64,000 nucleotides of DNA from Candidatus Uhrbacteria bacterium GW2011_GWC2_41_11 (GTDB taxonomy: Bacteria > Patescibacteriota > Patescibacteriia > UBA9934 > GWF2-40-263). Below the pieces are notes generated by a model. That model was not told the DNA's origin and did not search any database. It was given only the letters and a program-made list of their open reading frames with translations. Positions within the stretch are counted from its first letter, which is position 1; the number at the start of each line of letters is the position of its first letter. This document shows, one piece after another, positions 15,502 to 36,081 of the stretch. The stretch spans positions 85,958 through 149,957 of the forward strand of contig LCAH01000001.1 in assembly GCA_000996355.1 (NCBI GenBank), written 5' to 3'. A program made the translations under genes and the position numbers.

Positions 15502-15744
15502 ATGATCGAGCATCTTTCTTCTATTGTGATGCAGGAATGGTTTTTTCGTTTTGTACGAGTCTTGTCTCTTTTTGCCATGATTATTTTTATTCACAGCATT
15601 TTGTTTGGAGCATTTAAACATATGAATGCTTCCGGTCGTGATGATTTGACAGGGGATGGTCGAAAATACATATTGACTGGAACACTTGGCGCGATTGCAA
15701 TGATGATGTTTTTTTTCATGGCTTCGGCTGCTCTTGCTGATTGA
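15502..15744 (+). CDS. Small 2-TM membrane protein, possibly a minimal TrbC/VirB2-like pilin-type protein
   Basis: 80 aa laid out as helix (LSLFAMIIFIHSILFGAF), a polar loop with GDG, then helix (LTGTLGAIAMMMFFFMASAALA). Starts 3 nt after the yqeY stop, directly upstream of the pilin-module proteins. Confidence 0.5.
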   Translation: MIEHLSSIVMQEWFFRFVRVLSLFAMIIFIHSILFGAFKHMNASGRDDLTGDGRKYILTGTLGAIAMMMFFFMASAALAD

Positions 15745-15845
15745 CGATTGCGGGATGTTTTTATTTCTCTGGGCATGAGAAATGATTTCGTGTACAATAA
15801 AGAAAAATTGGCTGAGGTTTCATGTTGCAGAGAGGGAACCACAAT

Positions 15846-17699
15846 ATGCGTTTACGAAAGACCGCCATGGCTCTTGGCGTATTTGTGTTTGTGGGGATTT
15901 TGATGGTGTTAGGAACAAGAGATGTTTACGCACAAATAAACAGTGCAAGCGTGAATGCTGTCGGTTCTGCTTCCGGATTGTCTACGCAGGAATTAACGAT
16001 TCTTATTGCTCGTATCATTCGGGCAGCGCTTGGTGTTCTTGGAATTGTTTTCGTTGCACTGATTGTGTATGCCGGTTATTTGTACATGATTTCATCCGGC
16101 GATCCGGTGAAAACAGCGAATGCAAAAAAAATCATCAAAAGTGCTGCGATAGGTCTTGTCATTATTTTTGCTTCGTATTCCATTGCGAGTTATGTCCTTG
16201 GAAGATTATTAGCTGCGGCCGGACTCGCAGGAACAACGACAACAACAGCTGCACCATATTCAGAACCATTATCCGGTTCTCTTGGATCTGGAATGATTGA
16301 AAATCATTACCCAGGACGCAACGCTATTGATATTCCTCGCAATACTCGAATCATGATTACATTCAAGGAACCAATGAATCCTGATTCTTTTGTAAAGGAT
16401 GATGATAAGGATCCAGCGACAACCGATGATATGAATACAGATAATCTTTTGATCTATCCAACGGATTCTGTGAATGGATCTGAAGGAGTTGAAGCAAAAG
16501 ATGTTGCATTGGCGAGTACGGCTGTTGCGGTTAGTTATACGGAAGATCTTCGTACCTTTGTTTTTGATCCTATTGATTTGTTGGGGAATGCGCTTGAAGA
16601 TACAAATTATACCGTGAAAATACAGCCAGATAGTTTGAAAGCTGATGGAACAGCAGTGTTTTCCGGAGCCTATGCAGAAGGATATGAATGGAGTTTTGAA
16701 GTTTCAACCGAAGTAGACCTCACTCCTCCAAAAGTGGTCTCTGCCATTCCTGTCTCTTCAGACAATCCATACGATCGGAATGTGACGATTCAGATCACAT
16801 TTAATGAGGCTATGGATCCCGTTGCTGTATCCGGAACCTACGATCCGAATCAAGAAAAAACATTTTCTAATATCGAAATAGTAGCCACTCCTGAGGGAGA
16901 AACGAAAAATAACGTTTATGGATCTTTTCTTATAAGTAATGGATACAAGACCGTAGAATTTACCTCGTTTGATGCATGCAGCAAGGATCCTTGCGGAGAT
17001 ACCATTTATTGTCTGCCAGCGCTTGCAAATATCGAAGTACAAGCACATGCAGCAGGTTTGAGTACCGATCCGCCTCAAGCTTCCATGATAGGTGGTTTGT
17101 TTGATGGACTAGCTGATGCGGCAGGAAATTCTCTTGATGGAGATGGAGATGGAACTGCAGAAGGTCCTGGGGTAAGTTTAGATGATTATCAATGGAATTT
17201 TCAGACATCAGACGCTATTAATGATGATGTTCCAGAAATTATTTCTTTGTCTCCGGGAATTCGAGAAGAAAATGTGGATTTGAACACACAGGTGAAAGTG
17301 ACGTTTAATATGCTTATGCAGTCATCTTCATTAAATAGTGATGCGATTCGTCTTATTCCAGATCAGGTACAGGAACTTTGGTATACTCTTTCGCAGATGT
17401 CTTTAAATAGCAACTTTCAACCAGCAAATGTAGAAGAAAACCCTGTTTATACCCAGGCAATGGTGGATCATGCTTCTTTTTGGGAGAGTGATGAAACACA
17501 GGGAATTTTTTATAATTACTATCCTGTCATTTCGAATGATGTAAAGAGCGTCTATCAGATTTGTATGTATCCATCATACGGACCGTCCAATAGTGAAAGT
17601 TTTTCCTCGTGTGCAACCACATTGCAACCGTATTGTTGTGATGGACTTCCTTCAAATAAGGCGTGTACAACAAATAAGGGAACAACCCTCGGTGATTAG
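15846..17699 (+). CDS. Secreted/surface protein (~617 aa): signal peptide, TrbC/VirB2-like pilin module, then an ectodomain
   Basis: Start set at the ATG with gagggaacc 8 nt upstream; the track ORF begins at 15822. Has a signal peptide, then LTILIARIIRAALGVLGIVFVALIVYAGYLYMISSGDPVKTANAKKIIKSAAIGLVIIFASYSIASYV (two TM helices flanking a short loop), then a Thr-rich linker and about 480 aa with no TM. Confidence 0.75.
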   Translation: MRLRKTAMALGVFVFVGILMVLGTRDVYAQINSASVNAVGSASGLSTQELTILIARIIRAALGVLGIVFVALIVYAGYLYMISSGDPVKTANAKKIIKSAAIGLVIIFASYSIASYVLGRLLAAAGLAGTTTTTAAPYSEPLSGSLGSGMIENHYPGRNAIDIPRNTRIMITFKEPMNPDSFVKDDDKDPATTDDMNTDNLLIYPTDSVNGSEGVEAKDVALASTAVAVSYTEDLRTFVFDPIDLLGNALEDTNYTVKIQPDSLKADGTAVFSGAYAEGYEWSFEVSTEVDLTPPKVVSAIPVSSDNPYDRNVTIQITFNEAMDPVAVSGTYDPNQEKTFSNIEIVATPEGETKNNVYGSFLISNGYKTVEFTSFDACSKDPCGDTIYCLPALANIEVQAHAAGLSTDPPQASMIGGLFDGLADAAGNSLDGDGDGTAEGPGVSLDDYQWNFQTSDAINDDVPEIISLSPGIREENVDLNTQVKVTFNMLMQSSSLNSDAIRLIPDQVQELWYTLSQMSLNSNFQPANVEENPVYTQAMVDHASFWESDETQGIFYNYYPVISNDVKSVYQICMYPSYGPSNSESFSSCATTLQPYCCDGLPSNKACTTNKGTTLGD

Positions 17700-17708
17700 T
17701 CACAACAC

Positions 17709-20700
17709 ATGAAAACACGTTTTTTCTTCATTTCTTGTTTCGTCATTCTTTTTTGGGGCATATCGGCTCAATGGTTTGATATTCCTCCGGCTTTGGCTCA
17801 AGCGATTCAAACAAATGAGGCATTTGGCGGAGTAGCCCCAGAGAGTTTTGCAGAAACAGCCGGATTAGCTGGAGGAGATATCACTCTTATTATTGCTCGG
17901 TTGATTCGAGTAGTTCTTGGAACGCTTGGGGTTGTAGCTGTGGCATTTGTTTTGTATGGCGGATTTTTGTGGATGACCTCGAGAGGGGAAGATCTAAAGA
18001 TAAAGAAAGCAAAGATGATCATGACAAATGCATTGATTGGTTTGATCATTGTTTTGTCATCGTTTGCTATTGCTCAATTTGTGATCAGTCGACTGTCTTC
18101 TGCAACAGGAGCAGGAACGACAACAGAAGGAACAGAAAAAACAACGTATAATGATGTGTTAGATGCGAGTGCAACTTTTGTTTTGCGTTCTGTGAATACA
18201 GAATGTGCTTCCGCGATTCGCAACCTTGAACTTCAATTTATTTTTAGTCAGAACGTTTCTGTTTCCACAGTGAATGATAGTGGAATTGTTGTTTCTCGTG
18301 CGGATGGAGATCCGGTTTCTGGTTCTTTTGAAACATCGGGAAGTCGTGTGACGTTTATTCCATCTGCAACATGCACAACTTCAGACGGAATTGAGGTTCA
18401 TTGCTTTGATGCAGAAACAGTTTATGAAGTGAATCTGAGTTCTGCTGTTTTGAAGAGTAGTTCCGGTCGTACGCTTGAATGTTCTGAAACATATCCCTGT
18501 CACCAAACATTTACGACTGGGTCTGGTTTCGATACGAAAAAACCAGATATCCAGATGACAAGTCCAGATGATGGCGGTTCAGCATATAGTGGCACAGCAG
18601 AACTTCTTCAGGCACTTACTTCTGATGATTCAGGTGTTTCTTCTCTTGAATTTTCTTTGGATGGAGATGCTGTGGATGTGGCTGGTCTCGATGAGAGTTC
18701 AGCTCTCGCCCTTGCCATGGAAAATATTTTTTATGGGGAGTGGGATACCGTTGGGTATGTCACAAATAAAATGTATCATTTTTCTGCGGAGGGATTTGAC
18801 TGCGGGGGAAATAGTGATACGTCTTCAGAAATCGATGTTGTTTTACGCGCTCCGAATTGTAACAATGATATACAGGATGCAGAAGATCCTTATTTTGAAG
18901 ACGGAGTTGACTGCGGAGGAAATCAATCAGATGAATATTATTGCGGAGCGTGTAATGGGTCCTCTTGTATAGAAAATTCTGATTGTGCTTCAGGGAGTTG
19001 TGCAGAAAACATTTGTGTCTATTCAGCTGAAATAGAAGCCATTTTTCCTGGAGACGGTGCTCCTGGAAACTTGATGACAATTTCTGGAAACGGATTTGGA
19101 AATACGCAAGGTACGATTCTTTTTCTTGGAAGTATTGATGATGATACAGATGATGTTTCTGTTGGTCCTTATACTGCTTGTGACGGAACATGGACCGATA
19201 ATCAAATTGTCATTCAACTTGATGAAAAAATGGTAAGTGGACCGGTCGAGCTCGTGACCTCGGATGGATTTCGAGATAGAACCGATGATGAAAATGGTCC
19301 ATTGATCAGCGATTTTGAAGTGAATACAACCGTACGTCCCGGGCTTTGTCGTGTGGATCCAGAGAAGGCGTCTGGAAAAGATACAGTCACGGTTCAGGGA
19401 AATAATTTTGGAGACAATCAAGGATCTTCAGTTTTGTATTTTGATACATCAACCGCTTCGAGTTATCCATCTTGGGCGTCAAATAGTTTGAAAGCGGTTG
19501 TTCCTCTTCTTGACACTGGCTCGTATGACCTCCAGTTATTTGGAGGGAATGGAGATACGCGAGAGGGTTCAAACAAGTTGATATTTAACATCAATTCAAC
19601 CTCATCAAGTTCGGAACCGCCAGTTATTAGCGATGTGGATACAGGAGTGAAGCGTTGTGAAGATGAAAAAGGTTTCATTTGTACAGATGATGCAGATTGT
19701 GTGGCTGGTATTCCTTGTGCAGAAGATAAAAATGCCGGTCCGATCAGTCAATATGTGACGATTTACGGTTCGCATTTTGGAACAACTCCTGGAACCGTAC
19801 GTTTTCGAAACCAAGATCTTGATCTTGTCGCTCTTGCAGATACAAATTTTCCAGACAGTTGTGGAGAGGATTTCTGGGACAATGACAGTATTCTTGTGAA
19901 AGTTCCGAAAATATATGATTTATCTGATGGACATGCACTGAATGTTGGTTTGCATGATCTTTGGGTTGTTCGAGGAGAAGATGGAACTGTTTCTGATCCT
20001 GTGGATTTTGAAGTGATTGAAGGAAAAGCTGGACCAAGTATTTGTGCGGTAGAACCAGACGCAGGTCCTCCAGGGACAGATGTTTCATTTTTTGGTGAAG
20101 AATTTGGGAGTGATAAAGGATCTGTTATTTTTTACGAAAATCAAAAAGTTTCTCCAGGGGCATGGTCTGATGAACAGATCTCTGGAACCATTCAAAATCC
20201 CCTTCAAGTTCCAACTCAAGCAAAAACAGGTCCAGTAAAAATTCAGGCAGATGATGGACAATATTCGAATTCTGTTTCCTTTGAAGTCGGAATGTGTGAC
20301 GTTGATTTTTCTTGTGGAAGCGGACAGGAGTGTTGTGCGGATGGAGCATGTCGAATTGAGGAAACATGTAAGGAATCTATTCCTGTTTCCCATTACGCAT
20401 ACTTTTTTTCCACAGGAGACATTCCGGAAGCTCCGGAAGTGATTATTGAATGTAGTGATACGTATATTTCTCCAACTCCATGGGAATTTTGGGAAGGAGG
20501 AACAGATGTTTGTTTGACCGCAGCCGTTGCTGCATCTTTTTCCGAACCCATGGATACAAAAACATTTACTTCTTCAACTATTTCCGTTGAAAAGTGTCTT
20601 TTAGCGAATTGTGATTCAACAACTGCTGTGGAGATGTCTCCAAAAGGAAATCCAACAAGCATGGCCGAAACATCTTTTTTCTGGGAACCAGCTCAGGATT

Positions 20701-23700
20701 TTGAGCCTGAAACACGTTATCGTATAACTGTGAAAGGTGGAGAGAATGGCGTGAAGAGTGTACAAGGAGTTGCTATGGAAAAGGATTCGCAGTGGGAATT
20801 TGTTACAGCTCCTTCTGGAAATGAATGTACGATTGGCGGAGTGTATTTGACGCCTGCAAAATTTACCGCAACAGAAAAAGAACAACGTGTTCAATATACT
20901 GTTGCGCCTATTTCAGATGAATATCAGTGTCTTCTTTTAAGTTGTACAAATCATCAATGGACATACAATAGCAGTGATCCTTCAAAGGCAGATTTTGCCG
21001 AATTTGAAAATGCTTGTTCTTTGAAAGTGGCTGTTCATAAGGAAACAAACCCTGGGGTTCCTGTGGTGATTACTTCCTGGTTGTATGATAATGGAAATTT
21101 GGGTCCAAATGATACCGCAGATTTGACAATCAATTTTACGGATCCAAAAATTATTGACTTCTGGCCTGGTTGTGATTCCGTTTGTTTAAATGCTTCTGTT
21201 TCAGCTGTCTTTAATATTGACATGAAAGATGAATTTTCTGGATTTGAAATAGGGGGAGATCACATGGTTCGTCTGTATGAATGTGAAGATCCTGGGTGTA
21301 CATCAGATGAATTAACAGAAGTCAATGATCGTTCTGTTACATATGATTTGGAAACATTCACTGTTACCATTCGTTCGAATACGGATTTGAAGACGGATAC
21401 TTCTTATCGAGTAGTTTTTTCAGGGGAATTAACATCGACCAGTGATGTTTCTCTTTCGAAATCTGCTTCTGATCTCGCCTACGGAGACGATTTTTCGTGG
21501 ATTTTTACAACAAAAGATGAAGCGTGTGCAGTCAATCGTGTGGAGGTTACTCCTGAACAAGTGACCCTTACTATTATTGGCGAACGTCAAACATTTCAAG
21601 CAACGCCGTATAGTGCTCCAGATGATTGTTCGGAAAACGGTCAGGCATTAAACGGAGATCATTATCAATGGTCTGCTTGGACCGCGGAAGATGTGGAAAA
21701 TAACGTGGAAGACGCAGATGTCGTTCAGCTCATGGTAGATGGAAAAATTCGTGTAAGCGAAACATTTCCAGCTTACTGTTCAAGTTCTTCTTGCAATACC
21801 ATTGGATCGAATACCCCGGTGGCTATTTGCGGAAATAACACGGTTCATTGTACGACCGATGCAAATTGTGTTGCGTATGGAGCAGACGCAACTTGCAATG
21901 ATTTTGGTCAATGTGTGGAACCGGGGGAAGATTGTGATGACGGAAATGTCACGGAAAATGACGGTTGTTCTTCTATTTGTCTGACAGAAGGAGTGACAGC
22001 ATGTGTATCTTTGACAGACGTTGGTTGTTGTGGGAACGGAGTGCGTGAAGGACGGGAGGAATGTGATGATAAAAACACAAAAAATGGAGACGGATGCTCA
22101 AGTGTTTGTTTAAATGAGGGAGCAAAGGCTTTGAAATATGATTGTGGAGATGGAAAAGTGGCACAAAGTGCATCAACAGGAGGAGAAGAATGTGATTGGA
22201 AAGAGGAAAATGATGTGTATGGTTGTTCTTCCAATTGTTTGAATGTTGGTTCGATTTCCAAAGAAGATCTTTATGCAATTTGTGGAAATGGGGCGCAGGA
22301 AAACGGAGAAGATTGTGATGATAAAAACACAAAAAATGGAGACGGATGTTCGTCTACTTGCCAAAATGAGGGTTCTTCGTCTTCCTATAGTTCTGTCTGC
22401 GGAAACAATAAAATAACCTGCCATAAAAATGTAGATTGTAGTTCATATGGAAGTGGAACACAGTGCAATGTATTAGGGCAATGTGTGCAAACAGGAGAGG
22501 ATTGTGATGATGGAAATATAGAGGACGGAGATGGGTGTTCTTTTAACTGTCTGTTTGAGGGTTCGAGTGTGGAATATACAAATCCGTCTATTTGCACGGA
22601 CGGAACAATTGGAACAGGTGAAGCATGTGATGCGGAAGAAGTAGGAACAGTGATTGCCGGTTTTGGAGTGGCAGAAATAACCACAGATGCTCCGGAAGAG
22701 GTTACAATAAGCGGAACAGGAACAGCATCTTCAACCGTGACAGCTACAGAAGGAACAAGTGGAGTGACTGGTTTCGCGACAGTGACACTGGAATGTTCTT
22801 GTACGTCTGATGTTTCGTGTGGGGATGCTGAGGTATATGGATGTGGAGACGCGAATTGTTGTTTTGAACGTCCGCATATTCTTCTTCCAACGACTCCAGC
22901 AAATGGAAAAACAGATGTCTGTCGCAACACAGCAGTAGCTGTTGATTTTGATCAAATCATGGATGAAACGTCTTTTAAACAGACGATTGGTGAAGGAGAA
23001 AATCAAACCGTGGAATTAAACATGTATCTAGAACTCACGGCTGTGAATGGAACAAAAATAACAGATGCAAATGCTACAACTCTTTGTCCAGCAAGTTATC
23101 ATAAGGAAGTTGCATTTGCAGATGAATTATCCAATCCACTTGTTCGAATCTGGGATTGGCTTGTTCGCGGAGTGGCAAAATTGTTCAATCATGTTTATGC
23201 AGCAGAAATATCTTGTCAGCTAGCTGTTTCATATTCCATAGAAAAAACAGATACCGGTTCCAAAGTCTATGTAAACTATGGAGAAGCTCTTCAAGCGAAC
23301 GGAACGTATCGTTTGATTGTGATGGGTGATTCGGATGATTTAGATGGAAAATCAGATGGAGTGAAAAGTACATATGGTGTTGCTCTTTTGGAAGACATAT
23401 CAACAACATTCACGGTAGGAAATGAAATTTGTGCATTGGAAGCAGTTCAAGTGACAGATGAAGGAAAAGAAATTGTGACTGAATTTGATGATGCAAGTTC
23501 CGGATTTTTTAGCGAACAAGGAGAACAACACACCCTGACAACAACCGCTTTTACTCTTCATGGTGCAAATCAGGAAGAAATTCAGGAGATTGCCGGTGTA
23601 TATGATTGGAATTGGTCTTGGGATTCGACATCTTCAGATACTGAGGCAGATAATGCTGTCTCTGTGACAAAAGCGGACACAACACAAACAACAGCTGTTG

Positions 23701-26700
23701 GCGTAGCAAATGGAAAGGAAAACGGAATAGCTATAGCAACAATTACCACAGACGTTGTGGGAAAATCTGTCGGTTCTGAGGTATCCGGCACTGTTTCTCT
23801 TACCGCATTTTTGTGTGAAAATCCTTGGCCAAATCCAGAGGAAACAATTTTTCCTTTTGCCGATACAGCAGAGGCAGGTTTTGATTTTAATTTGAGCTCT
23901 CCTTATACAAATTTTTCCTTTTCCTATTGTCGTGATATGGAAGGAAAAAATACAACACTTCCAGAGCTTCGAGTTGTTGAGACGCCTCAATCTCCTATTT
24001 CAGAAATTTATAAAGAAATTCTTTTCCTTGTTGAAGGAACGAACGATGCAGTCGGTGTTCGTGTTTTTTCCAATGAGAAGTATTTATCCCCAAATGAATG
24101 GTATAAAGATCAGGCATTTACAGGTTCACCAACATCAACACTGTTTGATGGTTATGAGGCGATTCAGGATGGAGATACCTATTATGTGGTTGCGGCGAAC
24201 CAGGATGGAGATACCATTTATCCAAATATTTATGTGATTTCGGTTAATGAAGATGCCGGAGACGAAACAAAACAGATCATGAGTCAAATTCTTAAGAACT
24301 GGTTATTCAATGCCAATAGTGATGTGGTGACCGATTTGAACGTGTGTCGTACTGGTTCAGAGTATCTTACCGATTCAGTGACGGGAGGTTTTGTTTCATG
24401 TGATTGGGATCAAGATTGTCGTCAGGTTACCTATAGTGATAGTTCCTCCGCAGTCGTTCCGGATGGATGGTGTGATGCGCAGAAAGCCAAGTTATCGAGA
24501 GATATGCGTCGTTTGACAGATATTAAAACGATAGAACAGACACTTGATTCGTATGGAGATATTCATCGGCATTGTTCAGCAACGTACAGTCAGGCATGTG
24601 GCACGGATGATGATTGTTCAGGAGATGAAATATGTCTTGCTAATGTCCCTTTAATTCAGAGCGGTTCATTTCTGCGTGCATTTACAACAAGTACCTGGCC
24701 GTCCTGGTCAGCCGTTCTTGCAAATGAACTCGGAACGTCTCTTCCGCAAGATCCAATCAATATATTTGTAAGTTGTCCGGATGGAACTCAAGAAACGTAT
24801 TGTTGGGATGGTACACAAGGAATTTTTCAGTGTCAGGAAGGGTCCCATGCATATCTCTTTCAGAGTGTTGCAGGAGAAAGTTATAATCTTTATGCTCAAC
24901 TTGAAATGGATGAAGCAGATTGGGTCTACAATATAGATGATGACGCGACAGATAATGCCAACATTTTTGTAGAGTATGCACAAAGTTCAAATCCCGATGG
25001 GTTTTATCGGGATAGTGAAATGTGTAGCGGGGTTTTGATAGGAAGTTCAGCAAGGTGTGGGGATGGAGTTTTGGCAACAACAGAAATGTGCGAAATTGGT
25101 CAATCAAAAACAAAAGAATGCGACGCAAATGGAGACGGTGATATGGATGGGACTATTTCTTTAGCATGTATCAATGATGGAGGAATATGTCGATATCAAA
25201 CATCATCTGATTCGAATCTCTCTGAATGTATTTTGTATGAATGTGGCAATGGAGTGATGGATCCGGGAGAAACGTGCGATGATGCAATTTTGAATGGGAC
25301 GTATGGTTTTTGCGATGAAAATTGTTCACTTGCAGGTGCATTTTATTGTGGGGATGGCAGTATAGCCGGAGGAGAAGAATGTGACTGTGGAAGCAATACA
25401 GACACAATGGACACCGGTTCCTGGTCATCGATTCATTGCAGTAAATCAAATGGACAATATACCACGAATCCAGATGGTGGATGTGCGTTTGACTGCACAT
25501 TTCCTGGTCCTTCATGTGGAGATGGAGAAATAAATGGCGATGAAGCGTGTGATGGGGATTATAAGTCTTGGTCTGGCAAACTCTGCGGATCCGCGGATGC
25601 GTATGTCTCTTGTGAAACGGATACTGAATGTATGGATACGGAATGCGGTGATGGTGGATCGTCGTGTCCTATGTCTTCGATTTGTGTCGGGGGAAGTAAT
25701 GCAGGTGCAGCATGTACAGATTCTTTGGATTGCAACAGTGGCGACTGTTCTGATATCACCTATCAGCTTGTTCGATATCGAAGTTGTGACGATTCCGACG
25801 CAACTCCAACGTGCACTTGGAATCAGACAACAAATCCAGGAGATTGGACGGATTGCGTAGGAGGAAATCAATATTGCGGAAATGGAGTTCAGGAAGGAAA
25901 AGAAGAATGTGATGATGGAAATACGGATAACAGTGATGCGTGTACAACTTTATGTAAAATAAATGTGTGTGGAGATGGACATTCGTATAATGGTGTTGAA
26001 ACGTGTGATGAGGGCGACCAAAATGGCGTTGTTTGTACAGCCGATTATCAAGATACTTGTGCGTACTGTACGGTCTCATGTCAATACACAGTTGTTTCAG
26101 GGGCTTATTGCGGCGATCAGGTAATTGAAGAAGAAACAGAATATTGTGATGGAACTTCTGTTTCAAAATTCTGTTTTAAACCGCATGATACTCCGGACGA
26201 ACGTGATGTGACTGGAATGTGTGAAACGGATGCAGATTGCAATGTAAACGCAGGGTATACCTGTGAAACAACAGGTGTTTGTGATGGTGGCTCTCATTTG
26301 TTTGGAAGCGGAGATACAGCGACCTATGCAGACTATAATGGTCTTCCGTGTGTAAGCGGAAGTATAGAGTTTGACGAACGTTGCGGAACAACAAATAGTG
26401 GAACAGGAACATCTGAAGGGGTGTGCGTAGCGCCTGAATGTGCCAGTTCATGTTTTTCTTCTTGTCCTTATACATACGAACAATCTTCTATCTTGATTCA
26501 GACAGAGCTTTCAAATGCAACACAACAAACATCCGCTGACCTTTATAGTTATCTCTCAGGTCAGAGTCCGGACACAGCGCTGCTTTTTTTGCCAGCATGT
26601 ACCGTTGGAACTCAGTTAATGGCTGATATTGATATGTCTGATGTCGAACCTCCGACGGTAGATATTGTATTTGTGACAGATTTGTCTGGAAGTATGACCA

Positions 26701-27965
26701 CGGTGTTGGATACAAAAACAGGAGATAACCGTATTCAAGTGACGGTTGATTCTATGACGCAGGCTATTCAGGATTTATTCGATGATTATGGAGGTAATTC
26801 AGCAAATATGCGTATCTCCACAGTGAGTTTTACTGATTATTTGTCTGATGGTGTTGATACAGATGGAGAAAACGGAATTACAGACAGTGACGGATGTATT
26901 CAAGACACAAAAGATGGTGATGCTCTTGCGTGGATTGATCATGGGCTTGGTTCATCAACGGGAGAAAATGACATGTTATACAATGCGGAAACCGGTGTGG
27001 AAACATATGTAGCACGCGCTCACGGATATACCCCTACTGCTGCCGGACTTAAATGTGCTGATAAGGTTTTACAAAATTCTGATGCTAATTATAAAGTAAT
27101 TGTTTTGTTGAGTGACGGAGAACCAACCATTAATCTTGCTGGAGTGATCAATACATCTACACCAGAATCGAATGTCCCAGAAGTTGTATCTGTGCGCGAT
27201 CAGATGATATCCAAAGGAATTCATATATTTACAGCAGCCTTAACGACAAATACAGATCTTGTCGGATACATGGCTCACTTTTCAAGTGATGTTTGCGGAA
27301 CATGTGATGCGTGTGAATCATCATGTGAAACAAGTTGTGCCTCCGAATGTTCGGGTGAAAGTGCAACAGATCAATCATGTGTTGATGACTGTGAAGCAAA
27401 TGGAGATCTGTGTCTGGAAGATTGTGCAACGGATGTAGATTGTGATGTCGATTGCGACGGTATGGTCGGATCAGCCTTGAGTGCATGTTTAGGAGCGTGT
27501 ACTTCTGCAGTTAATTGTGTAGATACGTGTGAAAAGACCATCAAGTCATGTAAGGACTTGTGTACACCGACGGATGAGGAATGTGAGGATTCTTGTGTAG
27601 ATACATGTACATCTTCATCTTGTGAAGGATCCTGTCTTTCTTACGAAGATGTTAATGATTGTAAACCAAGAGAATCAGTTGAATATGCCTATTCTGCATC
27701 TACCGCAGAAGATCTTGAAACAATGTATCAGACGATCGTGGACAGTATTCTTGGTGTGACTGTTGGATTTACAACGGATTTTGCCGGACAGACGACCTTG
27801 ACATCTGGAGTGGTTGCTGACGGAGATAATGTCATAATGCCGTTTCCAGAAGGATTTGATTGCCGCACAACTGGTGCATGGACCATTCCATTCCGAATAA
27901 GTTTTGCAGGAACAGGGGTTGTTCATATCAGTGATATTTCTTTGAATTATTGTCCGATAGATTAA
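17709..27965 (+). CDS. Giant (3418 aa) cell-surface protein: signal peptide, TrbC/VirB2-like pilin module, IPT/TIG repeats, Myxococcus-type cysteine-rich repeats, vWA domain, Cys-rich C-terminus
   Basis: Uninterrupted 10.26-kb ORF. The N-terminal module ITLIIARLIRVVLGTLGVVAVAFVLYGGFLWMTSRGEDLKIKKAKMIMTNALIGLIIVLSSFAIAQFV is paralogous to the 15846 gene. Four IPT/TIG-like units (IFPGDGAPGNLMTISGNGFG, VQGNNFG, IYGSHFG, FFGEEFG). At least eight repeats of CGNGxxExGEECDDGNxxxGDGCSxxC. A vWA with MIDAS DLSGSM...SDGEPT near the C-terminus, then a Cys-rich tail. Confidence 0.85.
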   Translation: MKTRFFFISCFVILFWGISAQWFDIPPALAQAIQTNEAFGGVAPESFAETAGLAGGDITLIIARLIRVVLGTLGVVAVAFVLYGGFLWMTSRGEDLKIKKAKMIMTNALIGLIIVLSSFAIAQFVISRLSSATGAGTTTEGTEKTTYNDVLDASATFVLRSVNTECASAIRNLELQFIFSQNVSVSTVNDSGIVVSRADGDPVSGSFETSGSRVTFIPSATCTTSDGIEVHCFDAETVYEVNLSSAVLKSSSGRTLECSETYPCHQTFTTGSGFDTKKPDIQMTSPDDGGSAYSGTAELLQALTSDDSGVSSLEFSLDGDAVDVAGLDESSALALAMENIFYGEWDTVGYVTNKMYHFSAEGFDCGGNSDTSSEIDVVLRAPNCNNDIQDAEDPYFEDGVDCGGNQSDEYYCGACNGSSCIENSDCASGSCAENICVYSAEIEAIFPGDGAPGNLMTISGNGFGNTQGTILFLGSIDDDTDDVSVGPYTACDGTWTDNQIVIQLDEKMVSGPVELVTSDGFRDRTDDENGPLISDFEVNTTVRPGLCRVDPEKASGKDTVTVQGNNFGDNQGSSVLYFDTSTASSYPSWASNSLKAVVPLLDTGSYDLQLFGGNGDTREGSNKLIFNINSTSSSSEPPVISDVDTGVKRCEDEKGFICTDDADCVAGIPCAEDKNAGPISQYVTIYGSHFGTTPGTVRFRNQDLDLVALADTNFPDSCGEDFWDNDSILVKVPKIYDLSDGHALNVGLHDLWVVRGEDGTVSDPVDFEVIEGKAGPSICAVEPDAGPPGTDVSFFGEEFGSDKGSVIFYENQKVSPGAWSDEQISGTIQNPLQVPTQAKTGPVKIQADDGQYSNSVSFEVGMCDVDFSCGSGQECCADGACRIEETCKESIPVSHYAYFFSTGDIPEAPEVIIECSDTYISPTPWEFWEGGTDVCLTAAVAASFSEPMDTKTFTSSTISVEKCLLANCDSTTAVEMSPKGNPTSMAETSFFWEPAQDFEPETRYRITVKGGENGVKSVQGVAMEKDSQWEFVTAPSGNECTIGGVYLTPAKFTATEKEQRVQYTVAPISDEYQCLLLSCTNHQWTYNSSDPSKADFAEFENACSLKVAVHKETNPGVPVVITSWLYDNGNLGPNDTADLTINFTDPKIIDFWPGCDSVCLNASVSAVFNIDMKDEFSGFEIGGDHMVRLYECEDPGCTSDELTEVNDRSVTYDLETFTVTIRSNTDLKTDTSYRVVFSGELTSTSDVSLSKSASDLAYGDDFSWIFTTKDEACAVNRVEVTPEQVTLTIIGERQTFQATPYSAPDDCSENGQALNGDHYQWSAWTAEDVENNVEDADVVQLMVDGKIRVSETFPAYCSSSSCNTIGSNTPVAICGNNTVHCTTDANCVAYGADATCNDFGQCVEPGEDCDDGNVTENDGCSSICLTEGVTACVSLTDVGCCGNGVREGREECDDKNTKNGDGCSSVCLNEGAKALKYDCGDGKVAQSASTGGEECDWKEENDVYGCSSNCLNVGSISKEDLYAICGNGAQENGEDCDDKNTKNGDGCSSTCQNEGSSSSYSSVCGNNKITCHKNVDCSSYGSGTQCNVLGQCVQTGEDCDDGNIEDGDGCSFNCLFEGSSVEYTNPSICTDGTIGTGEACDAEEVGTVIAGFGVAEITTDAPEEVTISGTGTASSTVTATEGTSGVTGFATVTLECSCTSDVSCGDAEVYGCGDANCCFERPHILLPTTPANGKTDVCRNTAVAVDFDQIMDETSFKQTIGEGENQTVELNMYLELTAVNGTKITDANATTLCPASYHKEVAFADELSNPLVRIWDWLVRGVAKLFNHVYAAEISCQLAVSYSIEKTDTGSKVYVNYGEALQANGTYRLIVMGDSDDLDGKSDGVKSTYGVALLEDISTTFTVGNEICALEAVQVTDEGKEIVTEFDDASSGFFSEQGEQHTLTTTAFTLHGANQEEIQEIAGVYDWNWSWDSTSSDTEADNAVSVTKADTTQTTAVGVANGKENGIAIATITTDVVGKSVGSEVSGTVSLTAFLCENPWPNPEETIFPFADTAEAGFDFNLSSPYTNFSFSYCRDMEGKNTTLPELRVVETPQSPISEIYKEILFLVEGTNDAVGVRVFSNEKYLSPNEWYKDQAFTGSPTSTLFDGYEAIQDGDTYYVVAANQDGDTIYPNIYVISVNEDAGDETKQIMSQILKNWLFNANSDVVTDLNVCRTGSEYLTDSVTGGFVSCDWDQDCRQVTYSDSSSAVVPDGWCDAQKAKLSRDMRRLTDIKTIEQTLDSYGDIHRHCSATYSQACGTDDDCSGDEICLANVPLIQSGSFLRAFTTSTWPSWSAVLANELGTSLPQDPINIFVSCPDGTQETYCWDGTQGIFQCQEGSHAYLFQSVAGESYNLYAQLEMDEADWVYNIDDDATDNANIFVEYAQSSNPDGFYRDSEMCSGVLIGSSARCGDGVLATTEMCEIGQSKTKECDANGDGDMDGTISLACINDGGICRYQTSSDSNLSECILYECGNGVMDPGETCDDAILNGTYGFCDENCSLAGAFYCGDGSIAGGEECDCGSNTDTMDTGSWSSIHCSKSNGQYTTNPDGGCAFDCTFPGPSCGDGEINGDEACDGDYKSWSGKLCGSADAYVSCETDTECMDTECGDGGSSCPMSSICVGGSNAGAACTDSLDCNSGDCSDITYQLVRYRSCDDSDATPTCTWNQTTNPGDWTDCVGGNQYCGNGVQEGKEECDDGNTDNSDACTTLCKINVCGDGHSYNGVETCDEGDQNGVVCTADYQDTCAYCTVSCQYTVVSGAYCGDQVIEEETEYCDGTSVSKFCFKPHDTPDERDVTGMCETDADCNVNAGYTCETTGVCDGGSHLFGSGDTATYADYNGLPCVSGSIEFDERCGTTNSGTGTSEGVCVAPECASSCFSSCPYTYEQSSILIQTELSNATQQTSADLYSYLSGQSPDTALLFLPACTVGTQLMADIDMSDVEPPTVDIVFVTDLSGSMTTVLDTKTGDNRIQVTVDSMTQAIQDLFDDYGGNSANMRISTVSFTDYLSDGVDTDGENGITDSDGCIQDTKDGDALAWIDHGLGSSTGENDMLYNAETGVETYVARAHGYTPTAAGLKCADKVLQNSDANYKVIVLLSDGEPTINLAGVINTSTPESNVPEVVSVRDQMISKGIHIFTAALTTNTDLVGYMAHFSSDVCGTCDACESSCETSCASECSGESATDQSCVDDCEANGDLCLEDCATDVDCDVDCDGMVGSALSACLGACTSAVNCVDTCEKTIKSCKDLCTPTDEECEDSCVDTCTSSSCEGSCLSYEDVNDCKPRESVEYAYSASTAEDLETMYQTIVDSILGVTVGFTTDFAGQTTLTSGVVADGDNVIMPFPEGFDCRTTGAWTIPFRISFAGTGVVHISDISLNYCPID

Positions 27966-27967
27966 AT

Positions 27968-28849
27968 ATGAATGTATTTGATGAATCTCCTTCGGAAAGA
28001 CCTCTTTTTTTCCAGAAACGTTTTTTAATGATTGCAGGAGCAATGGTTGTTTTTATTCTTCTTATTTTTTTTGTCTGGAATGTCGTCTCACATCGAAATG
28101 AAACAAAACAACAGGAAGGTCTAGTAAAACAAGCAACTGCGGAATTGGAAAAAGCGCTTGCTCTATGTCAGAAGTCAGATGATCCAACCGGTTGTGCTCA
28201 AACAAAGATAGGAGAAACAGCTATACGTATTGGAGCAGCAATCATTTGTACAAAACTCGATGGGGAGGCAAAAGATAATTGTGTTTTGGGTACGGCTCTT
28301 GAACATGGTCAGATAAAGGATTGTGATTTGATGGAAGATAAAGAAGGAAAGACTTCATGTGAGGATGCCGTGTATCAGCGTCTTGCTTACGAAGAAAATC
28401 ATTTAGACTATTGCAATAAAATGGAGAGTTCTCTTGGAAAAGATCGGTGTTTAGATGGAGTGAGTTATCAAATAGCTGTTAAACAGGGATGCGGGGAAAA
28501 AACAGGAATCGAACCATCCGTCTGCGAAGCGATTCAGACGCTTGAAAGAGTTATCGCAAGTCAGGATCCTTCTCAATGTATGAATATATTTCAAGAAAAC
28601 GATCGTTCTGTTTGTTTGGAAGCGATTGGGTCAGGGGATCGTGACCATGATGATTTAACAGGGGATCAGGAAACACGTTTCGGAACAAGTGATACGAATC
28701 CAGATACAGACGGAGATGGTCTCACAGACAAAGATGAAATAATGGTGTGGGGAACGAATCCTCTTGTGTCTGATTCGGATGGAGATCATTTTACAGATGC
28801 CGAGGAAGTTCAAGGAGGATATAATCCGCTTGGCGCAGGACGTTTATAG
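27968..28849 (+). CDS. Membrane-anchored protein with a Cys-rich region and C-terminal thrombospondin type-3-like Ca-binding repeats (paralog 1 of 3)
   Basis: ATG 3 nt after the giant gene's stop. TM helix MIAGAMVVFILLIFFVW; C-terminus DTNPDTDGDGLTDKDEIMVWGTNPLVSDSDGDHFTDAEEVQGGYNPLG. Confidence 0.7.
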   Translation: MNVFDESPSERPLFFQKRFLMIAGAMVVFILLIFFVWNVVSHRNETKQQEGLVKQATAELEKALALCQKSDDPTGCAQTKIGETAIRIGAAIICTKLDGEAKDNCVLGTALEHGQIKDCDLMEDKEGKTSCEDAVYQRLAYEENHLDYCNKMESSLGKDRCLDGVSYQIAVKQGCGEKTGIEPSVCEAIQTLERVIASQDPSQCMNIFQENDRSVCLEAIGSGDRDHDDLTGDQETRFGTSDTNPDTDGDGLTDKDEIMVWGTNPLVSDSDGDHFTDAEEVQGGYNPLGAGRL

Positions 28850-28894
28850 GAATATACTTAAAAGAGTTATTTTTTACGATTGTGTTTTCTTTTT

Positions 28895-29557
28895 ATGTTT
28901 GAGAACGTAAAAAAAGAGCCTGAGGATATTTTTGCTGGAAGCGAAGGGGCTGTCCCGACTCCACCTCCTCCTGTTGCTCTTGCGGGTCAATCTCTTTCTT
29001 CTTCTCGGGAAATTTCTTCGTCCCCCATTTCATCGGAGCAAACCAGAGAAAAACAGACATCTCATTGGTCATGGAAAATGATCGGAATAGTTGGGATGGC
29101 AATTGTCATTGTTGCTGTGGCAGGCGTATTGTCTTCTCGAATTTTAGCAAGTCGTACAAAATCGTCAGATCGCGTTCCTTCTGTGCAAACAGACGAAGAA
29201 AAGATGCAAGAATTAAAAAAAGAGACAGAAAAAATACCAAAAACAACCTCTGAACAAAATAAACCTCAAGAACAAACGTCTGTTATTTTTCCAACTCCAA
29301 TTGTTGTTCCAGAACCAGACGCAGATAAAGATGGTCTTTCTGATGCACAGGAGGCAGAAATTGGAACGAGTCCAACAAATGCAGATACAGATGGTGACGG
29401 GTTGTTTGATCAGGAAGAGGTTGCTGTTTATAAAACCAATCCTCTGAACCCTGATACGGATGGAGATACGTATTTGGATGGAAAGGAAGTATCAAGCGGA
29501 TATAATCCAAATGGTTCTGGAAAATTATTTACTGTTCCAACAGAGGTTGCCCCGTGA
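28895..29557 (+). CDS. Membrane-anchored protein with thrombospondin type-3-like repeats (paralog 2 of 3)
   Basis: ATG at 28895 (the track's TTG at 28880 is the alternative). TM IGIVGMAIVIVAVAGVL; C-terminus PDADKDGLSDAQEAEIGTSPTNADTDGDGLFDQEEVAVYKTNPLNPDTDGDTYLDGKEVSSGYNPNG. Confidence 0.7.
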   Translation: MFENVKKEPEDIFAGSEGAVPTPPPPVALAGQSLSSSREISSSPISSEQTREKQTSHWSWKMIGIVGMAIVIVAVAGVLSSRILASRTKSSDRVPSVQTDEEKMQELKKETEKIPKTTSEQNKPQEQTSVIFPTPIVVPEPDADKDGLSDAQEAEIGTSPTNADTDGDGLFDQEEVAVYKTNPLNPDTDGDTYLDGKEVSSGYNPNGSGKLFTVPTEVAP

Positions 29558-29581: not shown

Positions 29582-30589
29582 ATGCCGGATCGTTCTCTAT
29601 CAGTGATTGAAACTCCGGAAGAGGTAAACAAACATTCTGTTGATCCTCTTATTTTTACGATGCCTGAAAAGTATCGGGGGCTTGCCGTTACACAAAAATC
29701 AGTTACACAAAAAACAGTTGTTCCTTTTTCAGGGTCACCTGTTGTTTCTCCACCTGCACCTGTATCTCCGAAAGCTGTTCCGTCTCCACTTTTAAAATCG
29801 AAAATGGCACGATCAACAAAGATTTTACTTATTGCTGGCGGTGTTTTCATTCTGGGAATGGGAGGAACAGGTATTTATTTTGTTTTTTTACGATCTCAAC
29901 CTGCACAACAGCAGGAAATTGTCTCTAAACCGGTTGTCAAAGAACCTATAAAACAAGAACAACCGAAGCCAGTTGTTAAAGAGGAGCCGTCAAAGGAAAA
30001 AATACCTGTTTCGCCTTTTCCGAAAGAATTACTTCCTGGTCGTGATACGGACAGTGATGGATTAACAGATGTGGAAGAAGTTGTATTTGGAACCAATAGC
30101 GGACTTCCAGATTCAGACGCTGACGGATATCTCGATGGAAATGAAGTATCGCATGGATATAATCCAAAAGGAACAGCACCGACAACATTGCTCGAATCTG
30201 GTGCTATAAAAGAATATGCCGCACCTGGAGCCGTCTATCGTTTTTTTTATCCAATTGGCTGGACAACACGAACAGGAGAAATCGATCCGTTGCAAGTCAT
30301 ATTGGTTGTTCCAAGCGGGGAAACAGTGACGGTTACATTGGCGGCAAAAAATGTCACTCAATCTCTGATAGAGTGGTACACTCAAGCGCATCCTGAACGA
30401 CCAGGAACAGATTTTGTTTCAACAACCACAAAAAAAGGATACCCATCCCTTCTTTCGAAAGATCAAATGACTGCCTATGTGGATGCAGGGACAGTTGTGG
30501 CTGCGTTTTTCTATCAATCAGGAACGAAGACGACTCTGGATTATCTCCAGACATTTCAAATGATTTTGAATAGTTTGATTTTAAGTTGA
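29582..30589 (+). CDS. Membrane-anchored protein with thrombospondin type-3-like repeats plus an extra C-terminal domain (paralog 3 of 3)
   Basis: TM ILLIAGGVFILGMGGTGIYFVF; DTDSDGLTDVEEVVFGTNSGLPDSDADGYLDGNEVSHGYNPKG; then about 140 extra residues. Confidence 0.7.
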   Translation: MPDRSLSVIETPEEVNKHSVDPLIFTMPEKYRGLAVTQKSVTQKTVVPFSGSPVVSPPAPVSPKAVPSPLLKSKMARSTKILLIAGGVFILGMGGTGIYFVFLRSQPAQQQEIVSKPVVKEPIKQEQPKPVVKEEPSKEKIPVSPFPKELLPGRDTDSDGLTDVEEVVFGTNSGLPDSDADGYLDGNEVSHGYNPKGTAPTTLLESGAIKEYAAPGAVYRFFYPIGWTTRTGEIDPLQVILVVPSGETVTVTLAAKNVTQSLIEWYTQAHPERPGTDFVSTTTKKGYPSLLSKDQMTAYVDAGTVVAAFFYQSGTKTTLDYLQTFQMILNSLILS

Positions 30590-34581: not shown

Positions 34582-35586
34582 ATGAACACAAAAAAGAGAG
34601 TGCTTACAGGAGATAGACCAACAGGAAAACTTCATTTAGGTCATTATGTTGGATCTCTCCAAAATCGTCTAAGACTTCAATCCGAACACGAGCAAATTTT
34701 TTGTATGATCGCTGATTTGCAGGCTCTTACAGATCACGCAGATCATCCAGAAAAAGTTCGAAAGAATGTTTTGGAAATTACCATGGATAATCTTGCTGTA
34801 GGTTTGGATCCAGATAAAACAGTATTTTTTATTCAATCCCACATTCCAGAAATTGCGGAACTTACCGTGTTGTTCATGAATTTAGTTACGCTCGCACGTC
34901 TTAAACGAAATCCAACTGTGAAGGATGAAATGAAACAAAAAGGATATGGCGAGGATGTTCCTGCTGGATTTTTGGCATACCCAATAAGTCAGGCTGCAGA
35001 TATTTTAACTTTTCATGCAAATAGTATTCCTGTTGGGGAAGATCAACTTCCTGTTCTTGAACAGACGAATGAAATTGTGACAAAGTTTAATAGTCTTTAT
35101 GGAAATCTTTTTTCAAAAATCGAACCTGTTCTCTCAACAGTTCCAAGGCTTGTTGGTGTTGATGGTGGTGCCAAGGCAGGAAAATCATTAGGAAATGCTA
35201 TTTATCTCAGTGATTCAAAAGAGGAAATCATGAGAAAGGTGATGATGATGTACACTGATCCTGATCATATTCGTATGGAGATGCCAGGAAAGATTGAAGG
35301 AAATGTTGTCTTTACCTATCTTGACGTATTTGATCCAGATAAAGAAACTATGCAGATATTAAAAACAAAATACAGTCAAGGTGGACTCGGAGATGTCGAA
35401 ATAAAATATCGTCTTGTGGATATTCTTGAAAACTTTATTGCTCCTATAAGAGAAAAAAGAATTGAGTATGAGTGTCATCCAGAGATGGTATTGCGTATTC
35501 TTGAAGAAGGAACAAATAGAGCACGTGAAATTGCAAAAGAAACAATGTGTGAAGTGAAAAAAGCAATTGGTCTTGATTATTTTTGA
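34582..35586 (+). CDS. trpS: Tryptophanyl-tRNA synthetase
   Basis: Class I HIGH region GDRPTGKLHLGHYVGSL; KMSKS-like GAKAGKSLGN; size typical of TrpRS. Confidence 0.92.
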   Translation: MNTKKRVLTGDRPTGKLHLGHYVGSLQNRLRLQSEHEQIFCMIADLQALTDHADHPEKVRKNVLEITMDNLAVGLDPDKTVFFIQSHIPEIAELTVLFMNLVTLARLKRNPTVKDEMKQKGYGEDVPAGFLAYPISQAADILTFHANSIPVGEDQLPVLEQTNEIVTKFNSLYGNLFSKIEPVLSTVPRLVGVDGGAKAGKSLGNAIYLSDSKEEIMRKVMMMYTDPDHIRMEMPGKIEGNVVFTYLDVFDPDKETMQILKTKYSQGGLGDVEIKYRLVDILENFIAPIREKRIEYECHPEMVLRILEEGTNRAREIAKETMCEVKKAIGLDYF

Positions 35587-35592
35587 AAGATT

Positions 35593-36081
35593 ATGACGTA
35601 TCATCCAACGGTTAAACAAATTATTTCTTTGCTCACCGAACATGAATGTTGGTTTACAACATTTGAACATGAGCCAACGACAACGAGTGAAGAATCAGCA
35701 AATGTTCGACCAGAATACACGCTTCATCATGGAGCAAAAGCAATGATTGTTCGGGTAAAGATATCTGAAACAAATAAAAAATATGTAATGCTTGTATTTC
35801 CAGGGGATCATAAATTTGATCGTCAAAAAGTTCAGTATTTTTTTGAGGCAAAAGATGTTCGATTGGCAACTCCTGAAGAAGTGGGTGCACAAACCGGAGG
35901 AATACAGATTGGGGGTGTTCCGCCATTTGGTCAACTTTTTGGTATGGAGGTGATTGTGGATCCATCTTTGTTAGAGAACGAACAGATGATATTTAATGCA
36001 GGAGATCGTTGTTTTTCCATTGCGATGAGGACAGCGGATTATAAAAATTTGGTTCACCCGGTTATTGCGAAAATGATATAA
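35593..36081 (+). CDS. YbaK/ProX-type aminoacyl-tRNA deacylase domain protein
   Basis: Glycine-rich GGIQIGGVPPFG and surrounding YbaK-fold pattern. Confidence 0.7.
   Translation: MTYHPTVKQIISLLTEHECWFTTFEHEPTTTSEESANVRPEYTLHHGAKAMIVRVKISETNKKYVMLVFPGDHKFDRQKVQYFFEAKDVRLATPEEVGAQTGGIQIGGVPPFGQLFGMEVIVDPSLLENEQMIFNAGDRCFSIAMRTADYKNLVHPVIAKMI

Follow-up and report, generated by a model that had tools for sequence, protein, structure and literature searches.

A 3,418-residue Uhrbacteria protein joins a VirB2-type pilin module to a conserved stalk and a variable VWA head: a candidate surface attachment fibre

The window analysed here, a 64-kb stretch of contig LCAH01000001.1 from Candidatus Uhrbacteria bacterium GW2011_GWC2_41_11, holds a gene for one protein of 3418 residues, hereafter the giant. 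Candidate phyla radiation bacteria (CPR, or Patescibacteria) are thought to live attached to other cells, and we know of essentially no attachment machinery described in them outside Saccharibacteria. The giant joins an N-terminal VirB2-type pilin module to a long series of immunoglobulin-like (Ig-like) domains and cysteine-rich repeats, followed near the C-terminus by a von Willebrand factor A (VWA) domain that carries a metal-ion-dependent adhesion site (MIDAS). We read it as a pilin-anchored, extended cell-surface fibre whose variable MIDAS head attaches to a partner cell, and give this reading a probability of about 0.6. The features of the gene, in window coordinates and residue numbers (aa), are as follows.

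17709..27965, + strand: the giant gene, 3418 aa and 364 kDa, with hydrophobic segments at the N-terminus only
17709..17804, + strand: Sec-type signal peptide, aa 1-32 (...PPALAQA), read from the sequence
17805..18107, + strand: VirB2/TrbC-like pilin module of type IV secretion systems (T4SS_pilin), aa 33-133, with FAETAGL motif, first transmembrane helix (TM1), basic loop SRGEDLKIKKAKM and second transmembrane helix (TM2)
18171..18818, + strand: Big_5 (aa 174-270) and Big_7 (aa 279-325...) Ig-like domains, from Pfam
18846..20285, + strand: conserved Cys knot (7 conserved Cys, aa ~384-436), then four IPT/TIG domains (aa 441-859), from Pfam and family conservation
20421..21818, + strand: two Big_5 domains (aa 930-1033 and 1158-1268), from Pfam
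21825..22634, + strand: Cys-rich acidic repeat block 1 (myxo_disulf_rpt / DUF4215), aa 1373-1642, with 5 clear units and 1 degenerate unit
22656..23798, + strand: partial Big_5 (aa 1727-1770) with its flanks, a weak Pfam match (E 0.0014-0.0016)
23814..24353, + strand: Mog1/PsbP-like alpha/beta domain, aa ~2036-2215, AlphaFold model with a confidence score (pLDDT) of 91
24354..25043, + strand: long helix (aa 2258-2285) and beta-sheet domain with disulfide hairpins, packing on the Mog1/PsbP-like domain
25056..26528, + strand: Cys-rich repeat block 2, aa 2450-2940, with 3 clear units (2512, 2723, 2754) and expanded or degenerate units
26631..27698, + strand: VWA domain with MIDAS and three hypervariable loops, from Pfam, a PDB profile match and the family alignment
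27291..27677, + strand: Cys-rich, hypervariable expansion (24 Cys) of a loop within the VWA module, aa ~3195-3323
27699..27962, + strand: conserved C-terminal domain, aa ~3331-3418, ~90 aa, ending ...SLNYCPID

The open reading frame (ORF) of the giant is single and uninterrupted and starts with ATG, in agreement with the unbroken 10.26-kb plus-strand ORF described in an earlier, sequence-only reading of this DNA. A gene that carries repeated Cys-rich units could be an assembly chimera, or a pseudo-ORF that arose when repeats were collapsed, and one public fragment of the family (P0001) appears to be chimeric itself. The probability of such an artefact is negligible. Repeats within the gene are at most 76% identical at the DNA level, a search for tandem DNA arrays within it returned none, and 36 independent assemblies yield full-length orthologues collinear over 2,600-3,400 residues; for these reasons we exclude an assembly artefact, barring a coverage break in the source reads. 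The whole gene is moreover intact in all 27 distinct loci that contain it, with seven others cut by a contig end. The remark in the sequence-only reading that the gene is a very large investment for a small genome is plausible: one orthologue sits on a 668-kb contig, so that the gene would take up ~1-1.5% of such a genome.

Hydropathy along the whole giant places hydrophobic segments at aa 5-25, 57-91 and 101-131 and none beyond aa 131. The signal peptide and the two helices of a hairpin are thus the only hydrophobic segments of the protein, which supports its assignment as an N-terminally anchored fibre. The earlier reading had missed this N-terminus, where aa 1-133 form a VirB2-type pilin module, matched by PF18895 over aa 33-133 and predicted to anchor the protein. 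The A-x-A/AQ cleavage region of the signal peptide is kept in the family alignment, the loop between the two hairpin helices is basic (SRGEDLKIKKAKM), and the hairpin ranks with the best-conserved regions of the giant (mean identity 0.51 across aa 51-100). PF18895, a pilin family common in Patescibacteria, reaches 28.2 bits when scored on the N-terminal 140 aa, above its cut-off of 26.6, and 22.5 bits, below the cut-off, over the whole giant; it matches 14/14 full-length family members and 25 of 26 family N-termini (best 8.8e-13), four of which also match TrbC (PF04956). A profile of the pilin module retrieved thousands of PF18895 proteins, the best-scoring among the matches listed being mostly 120-265 aa long, and gave zero matches in the PDB. 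Stand-alone pilins of 131-137 aa, some of them from Uhrbacteria, align end to end with aa 1-133 at 47-50% identity and terminate at aa ~133, exactly where the Gly/Thr linker of the giant starts. Because they cover aa 1-133 from end to end, the giant amounts to a complete pilin with a 3,290-residue C-terminal extension. Its 3418 aa lie outside the ~100-150-aa size of a stand-alone T4SS_pilin, the pilin being its first 133 residues. The type IV pilin motif occurs nowhere in the 64-kb window, and no true type IV pilin genes were found in the window or the examined loci; type IV pilin identity was rejected for the giant, which lacks the defining motif.

A pilin fused exactly at the C-terminus of its stand-alone relatives raises the possibility that the giant is itself a modular VirB2-type pilin. 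In that case the hairpin would be extracted from the membrane and co-polymerise with the organism's own short PF18895 pilins, and the ectodomain would be displayed on, or at the tip of, a T4SS-like pilus. In assembled F/VirB2 pili both pilin termini face outward, so a C-terminal fusion is topologically allowed, and the strong conservation of the hairpin is in keeping with polymerisation. Against this, T4SS machinery (VirB4, VirB6 etc.) was not found among the Pfam-scanned ORFs of the window or in the flanks of two related loci (L002 and L003), and a 350-kDa appendage on each subunit may be hard to accommodate sterically. We know of no description of a VirB2-family pilin that carries a large fused domain, and of no demonstration of such a pilus in CPR bacteria. 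Two published systems lend the idea some substance: tandem arrays of divergent VirB2-like genes of unknown role, reported in Patescibacteria (PMC12102498), and PilB, which combines pilin and vWA module within a different class of pilins and so serves as a precedent (PMC8179133). Taken together, we consider a polymerising giant unlikely, if a real possibility. The bolder form of the proposal, that the giant and its 625-aa neighbour are the first modular pilins of the VirB2/conjugative-pilin class and that a T4SS-derived pilus of Uhrbacteria bears a ~350-kDa MIDAS adhesin as a conserved host-attachment organelle, is put forward as a doubtful but specific suggestion. If true, it would explain in concrete terms what the relaxase-less T4SS and the pilin arrays of CPR bacteria, both enigmatic, are for. 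Full-text literature searches returned no description of the giant family or of VirB2-type pilins fused to large ectodomains. Through the VirB2-type fusion, giant surface proteins become connected with the pilin arrays of Patescibacteria, themselves unexplained, and a testable route of assembly is suggested.

The ectodomain (aa 128-3418, window 18090-27962) has a mass of 350 kDa, a pI of 4.05 and 182 Cys, an even number. Across the family, 127 of the 183 Cys of the giant are conserved in at least 80% of orthologues. With 182 ectodomain Cys, mostly conserved, dozens of disulfides are expected, and therefore a need for extracytoplasmic oxidative folding in a minimal-genome CPR bacterium. The domain scan proposed in the sequence-only reading matched TIG, myxo_disulf_rpt and VWA, all above their cut-offs (VWA on the C-terminal segment alone). 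The four IPT/TIG-like units seen by eye are each marked by a G-x-x-F-G motif (residues 460, 564, 687 and 796), and PF01833 scores them at 69.2-84.7 bits against a cut-off of 20.9, with 13/14 family members matching. The Cys-rich repeats fit the pattern CGNG-x-E-x-CDDGN-x-GDGCS-x-C. TIGR02232 (NCBIfam myxo_disulf_rpt) reaches 74.8 bits, with a cut-off of 20.8, in 5 stretches, and DUF4215 matches 10/14 full-length members (best 2.5e-28). A purpose-built hidden Markov model (HMM), trained on the clear copies in the giant, finds 8 units at E<=1e-5, starting at 1404, 1441, 1479, 1525, 1595, 2512, 2723 and 2754, and ~5 further degenerate or expanded units. The count of at least eight Myxococcus-type repeats was therefore a fair one. 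Nearly all Cys of repeat block 2 are conserved in the family. Several Big_5/Ig-like domains and the Mog1/PsbP-like domain, found by Pfam and AlphaFold, had escaped the earlier reading. Ig-like structure may extend further than Pfam indicates: the stretches after each of the two Big_5 domains at 20421..21818, like the flanks of the partial Big_5 at 22656..23798, have no Pfam match and are judged, by sequence alone, putatively Ig-like. Residues 51-229 are 33% identical to the 625-aa paralogue encoded upstream.

Between the partial Big_5 and Cys-rich block 2 lies an unannotated module of 440 residues, for which structure prediction of subsegments, another check that had been suggested, gave a confident AlphaFold model (pLDDT 91). 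By its structural similarity, the modelled segment aa ~2036-2215 is predicted to have a Mog1/PsbP-like fold. With a mean identity of 50-54% across aa 2101-2200, it ranks with the best-conserved portions of the family, for which it could serve as a specific marker. The helix and sheet domain that follows weakly resembles the globular part of type IV pilins and pseudopilins, a likeness that is unconfirmed; an assignment of aa ~2230-2420 as a type IV pilin-like domain could not be substantiated. A Foldseek search of the middle module against the PDB gave no significant match.

Since ~20% of the giant is unmatched by Pfam, the protein could be a secreted enzyme or a toxin carrier, comparable to the giant genes that predatory Omnitrophota possess and that have been linked to cell-wall degradation (bioRxiv 10.1101/2023.11.21.568195). 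However, no hydrolase, peptidase, toxin or other catalytic domain was found in 14 full-length members or in segment scans of the giant, the middle module folds confidently as a Mog1/PsbP-like, binding-type domain with a helix/sheet domain and not as an enzyme, and the giant is membrane-anchored at its N-terminus. An enzymatic or toxin-delivering role is on these grounds very improbable.

The VWA domain with MIDAS that had been noticed near residue 2990 is borne out. Pfam VWA (PF00092/PF13519) scores 18.8 bits over the whole giant and 25.0-25.1 bits on the C-terminal segment alone, where the cut-off is 23.8. VWA_2 matches 27 of 31 orthologous C-terminal regions (best 5e-12), and VWA 9/14 full-length members (best 7e-17). 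Conservation of the MIDAS is high: of 37 members, 35 keep D2991, 34 keep S2993, 30 keep S2995 (with Thr in 6 more), 32 keep T3108, 28 keep T3110 and 34 keep D3136. A VWA family profile built from the 31 C-terminal regions has as its four best PDB matches 7w6b (an unnamed VWA protein, 1.4e-11), Streptococcus sanguinis PilB (1.7e-9), Porphyromonas gingivalis Mfa5 (9e-9) and Lacticaseibacillus rhamnosus SpaC (7e-8), the last three of which are pilus-borne adhesins. The domain is predicted to bind its ligand in a divalent-cation-dependent manner.

Across the family, three VWA loops differ greatly from member to member in both length and sequence, and aa 3001-3350 is the least conserved stretch of the whole giant. 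The loop between 'MAHxSS' and 'EYAY' is illustrative. In most members it measures 7-23 residues and has two Cys; the window protein and P0003, P0004, P0007 and P0008, all among its closer relatives, have expansions of 123-153 residues and 14-24 Cys whose sequences are unrelated; the columns of this Cys-rich loop have a family occupancy of 0.11-0.15. The Cys-rich tail of the sequence-only reading therefore exists as a segment (24 Cys), but it is not terminal: it is a lineage-specific loop internal to the VWA domain, with a conserved domain after it. This C-terminal domain is predicted, with low confidence, to be beta-rich. Neither an LPXTG motif nor a C-terminal hydrophobic anchor was found in the giant. 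A conserved MIDAS at the end predicted to be membrane-distal, surrounded by hypervariable loops, is the signature of a ligand-recognition head and not of a scaffold. The variable loops are thus candidate determinants of host specificity, which can be compared across populations.

The fragment P0001 (L001 76-1566) is a predicted protein of 496 aa in which the N-terminus of MreB is joined in frame to the C-terminal VWA module of the giant family. It lies on a 2.6-kb contig at 2.5x coverage and is probably a chimeric assembly; its MIDAS is degenerate (DYTNTM) and the Cys-rich loop is absent.

An exhaustive HMMER search with a C-terminal profile returned 168 proteins, 60 of them below 1e-30, with E down to 1e-208; most matches cover profile positions ~440-545, which correspond to the C-terminal domain. 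Full-length orthologues comprise 36 cluster representatives of 3,031-3,997 aa, collinear with the giant over 2,600-3,400 residues at 32-59% identity, which answers the comparative search suggested earlier. A word-index homology search had given 1 match for the C-terminal 518 aa and 0 for aa 1780-2450, missing all 36 full-length orthologues, one of them 59% identical; since HMMER found these, the word-index result should not be read as a lack of homologues. Every named family member is from Candidatus Uhrbacteria, under generic annotations (Ig-like, VWFA, IPT/TIG, cysteine-rich repeat protein, hypothetical). A scan of one genome per GTDB species with a 5-sequence alignment of the Mog1/PsbP-like domain located 34 loci, whose informative titles are Uhrbacteria, Parcubacteria group and Patescibacteria, some reading only 'bacterium'. 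L012, L015, L016, L019, L025, L027, L028, L034 and L035 are titled 'uncultured Gammaproteobacteria bacterium isolate binchicken_*' or similar, apparently wrong placeholders; these records nonetheless contain a giant gene and operon of the Uhrbacteria type. Sequence identity is spread evenly along the giant (0.25-0.55 per 50-residue window). The family thus presents a variable head on a conserved stalk: variability is concentrated in the three VWA loops, and the stalk is 25-55% identical throughout.

The genes that accompany the giant in the window, in the order 80-aa ORF, 625-aa paralogue, giant and three membrane proteins with thrombospondin type 3-like (TSP3) repeats, are the following.

15502..15744, + strand: possible two-TM pilin-like ORF, uncertain, 80 aa, no signal peptide
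15822..17699, + strand: upstream paralogue, 625 aa, with a pilin module like that of the giant and 3 Big_5 stretches
27950-28849, 28880-29557 and 29582-30589, + strand: three single-pass membrane proteins, paralogues of one another, that carry bacterial TSP3 repeats (Ca-binding type)

The 625-aa paralogue stands immediately upstream of the giant in 30 species loci, and the three TSP3 genes stand downstream of it in 31 related loci. The operon is embedded in the series lytR - S26 signal peptidase - hisS - yqeY ... ybeY - (dagK) - ftsA - ftsZ - nrdR - htrA - pyk, and the same gene order surrounds the orthologues on the 668-kb contig (L002) and in GCA_016209325.1. Promoter and terminator scans around the operon did no better than on shuffled sequence. 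That the giant belongs to an orthologous family which spans the lineage, is collinear and keeps a fixed operon in the core genome could not be seen in a single stretch of DNA; in this the family is unlike typical fast-evolving repeat adhesins.

Several smaller observations concern this neighbourhood. In BLAST the 80-aa ORF weakly matches the upstream paralogue's hairpin, and it aligns in alignment A7, with zero Pfam matches on its own; a similar small gene also occupies its position in L003/L004 (86 aa), L005, L007, L015 and L034, and is conserved in 5 loci. Each TSP3 protein has one or two TSP3 repeats near its C-terminus, and the first has a Cys-rich region as well. At window 34582-36081 (+), genes for a class-I (Trp/Tyr-type) aminoacyl-tRNA synthetase and a tRNA_edit-domain protein lie between ftsZ and nrdR; in L002 and L003 nrdR directly follows ftsZ. 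Further along, at 53755-55797 (+) and 55816-56820 (+), a Pfam scan places a DUF4012 protein of 680 aa directly upstream of mreB, with a GT4 glycosyltransferase following.

The main rival to an attachment fibre is a structural component of the envelope (a scaffold, a spacer or an S-layer-associated fibre) that would serve envelope architecture or within-species cohesion instead of host adhesion. Every Uhrbacteria locus examined has a single-copy, collinear orthologue in a fixed housekeeping position (S26 signal peptidase, hisS, yqeY ... ybeY, ftsA, ftsZ), without the variation in copy number or repeats that is typical of adhesins. Full-length identities of 32-59% are of the same order as the YqeY and YbeY medians of 47-49%, although the giant's own best-match median is only 36%; FtsA and FtsZ reach 70-78% in the same best-match tblastn comparison over the same loci. 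What argues against a purely structural role is the head itself, with its conserved MIDAS framed by hypervariable loops, and the pilus adhesins among its closest solved relatives. We consider the envelope role distinctly unlikely.

A model for the pilin-anchored attachment fibre can be put together from these elements. After export through Sec and cleavage of the signal peptide, the VirB2-type hairpin would hold the N-terminus in the membrane, with the basic loop on the cytoplasmic side. Outside the cell, the other 3,290 residues would form an acidic and probably heavily disulfide-bonded stalk of Ig-like domains (Big_5, Big_7, TIG) and Cys-knot repeats, with the conserved Mog1/PsbP-like and helix/sheet module midway. 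By a rough estimate from the domain count, the extended fibre may measure ~100 nm. At its distal end the VWA domain would present the MIDAS amid the hypervariable loops, and this head would bind a ligand on the surface of a partner or host cell. The 625-aa paralogue and the three TSP3 membrane proteins would probably be co-assembled accessory or base components.

Several points weigh against this model. The ORF, its domains, the topology signals, the conserved MIDAS, the family, the operon and the contrast between variable head and conserved stalk are observed, but that the protein extends outside the cell and adheres, what it binds and what its operon partners do, including any interaction with the giant, is inferred, and we know of no host for Uhrbacteria. 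A structural role in the envelope would likewise be in keeping with the uniformly conserved stalk and with the fixed place of the gene in the core genome, beside ftsA/ftsZ. The MIDAS is degenerate in a few orthologues (P0002, with DYTNTM, P0046 and P0041), so that metal-dependent binding would not be universal in the family. The AlphaFold model of the C-terminal module, obtained with a 2-sequence alignment, has a pLDDT of 39 and is unreliable, though its strands and helices alternate as expected of a VWA domain. The adhesin or host-interaction protein proposed in the sequence-only reading nevertheless remains the best reading, on the strength of the VWA relatives and the variable MIDAS loops, with its function inferred from homology. 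The giant is thus a lineage-wide, single-copy attachment candidate for Uhrbacteria that stays collinear along ~3,400 residues in 34 or more species. It is of interest for CPR biology and yet a well-behaved surface protein, explicable by homology and not categorically new.

In its overall logic the giant resembles both giant adhesins and modular pilins. With the stand-alone VirB2/TrbC-like pilins of Patescibacteria (PF18895), aa 1-133 have in common the signal peptide, the FAE-AGL motif, TM1, the GGFLWMT-GGN-K-AK loop and TM2. As in the VirB2 arrays (PMC12102498), pilin-like genes lie in tandem here, the giant being one of two or three; unlike the stand-alone pilins it carries a 3,290-aa C-terminal ectodomain, ~25x the size of the pilin, and it adjoins no T4SS gene in the window.

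In another CPR lineage, the Absconditabacteria, the largest genes of the reduced genome of Vampirococcus lugosii (1,392-4,163 aa) encode membrane-localised proteins proposed for host attachment (PMC8080830). To our knowledge, neither a pilin-hairpin fusion nor a conserved operon is described there for these proteins. SiiE, the RTX (repeats-in-toxin) adhesins LapA/MpIBP and the 7651-aa adhesin of Mobiluncus are, like the giant, very large, acidic and extended, with Ig-like modules and distal ligand-binding domains. In contrast to the SiiE/LapA type, the giant has no RTX repeats or type I secretion system (T1SS) signal, and its Ig repeats are not near-identical tandem copies. RTX/T1SS adhesin identity was rejected: no RTX/hemolysin-type Pfam match was found, the N-terminus carries a Sec signal and tandem DNA repeats are absent. 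While giant non-fimbrial adhesins are held together by Ca-linked or ester/isopeptide cross-links, the giant appears to be stabilised by disulfides (182 Cys), its modules are each distinct and orthologously conserved, and its anchor is a pilin hairpin.

The closest parallels for the head come from pili. SpaC (L. rhamnosus, 6m48), Mfa5 (P. gingivalis, 6tnj) and GBS104 (3tw0) likewise place a VWA domain with MIDAS and variable arms distally on an Ig-like fibre. The giant differs from these tip adhesins in having no LPXTG/sortase motif or C-terminal anchor, and in being a single N-terminally anchored polypeptide and not a polymer of pilins; a sortase-anchored pilin identity was rejected on its C-terminus (...SLNYCPID), which has no hydrophobic tail. 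S. sanguinis PilB (PDB 7b7p), a modular type IV pilin with a grafted vWA module (PMC8179133) and the second-best solved match to the head (1.7e-9), shares the overall design of a pilin module followed by a grafted vWA domain whose MIDAS is used for adhesion. The pilin classes are different: PilB has the class III signal peptide and alpha-1 helix of a type IV pilin, while the giant has a VirB2-type two-helix hairpin and no G-F-T-L-x-E motif. The spacing differs as well, with a short linker between pilin and vWA domain in PilB and ~2,800 residues of stalk in the giant.

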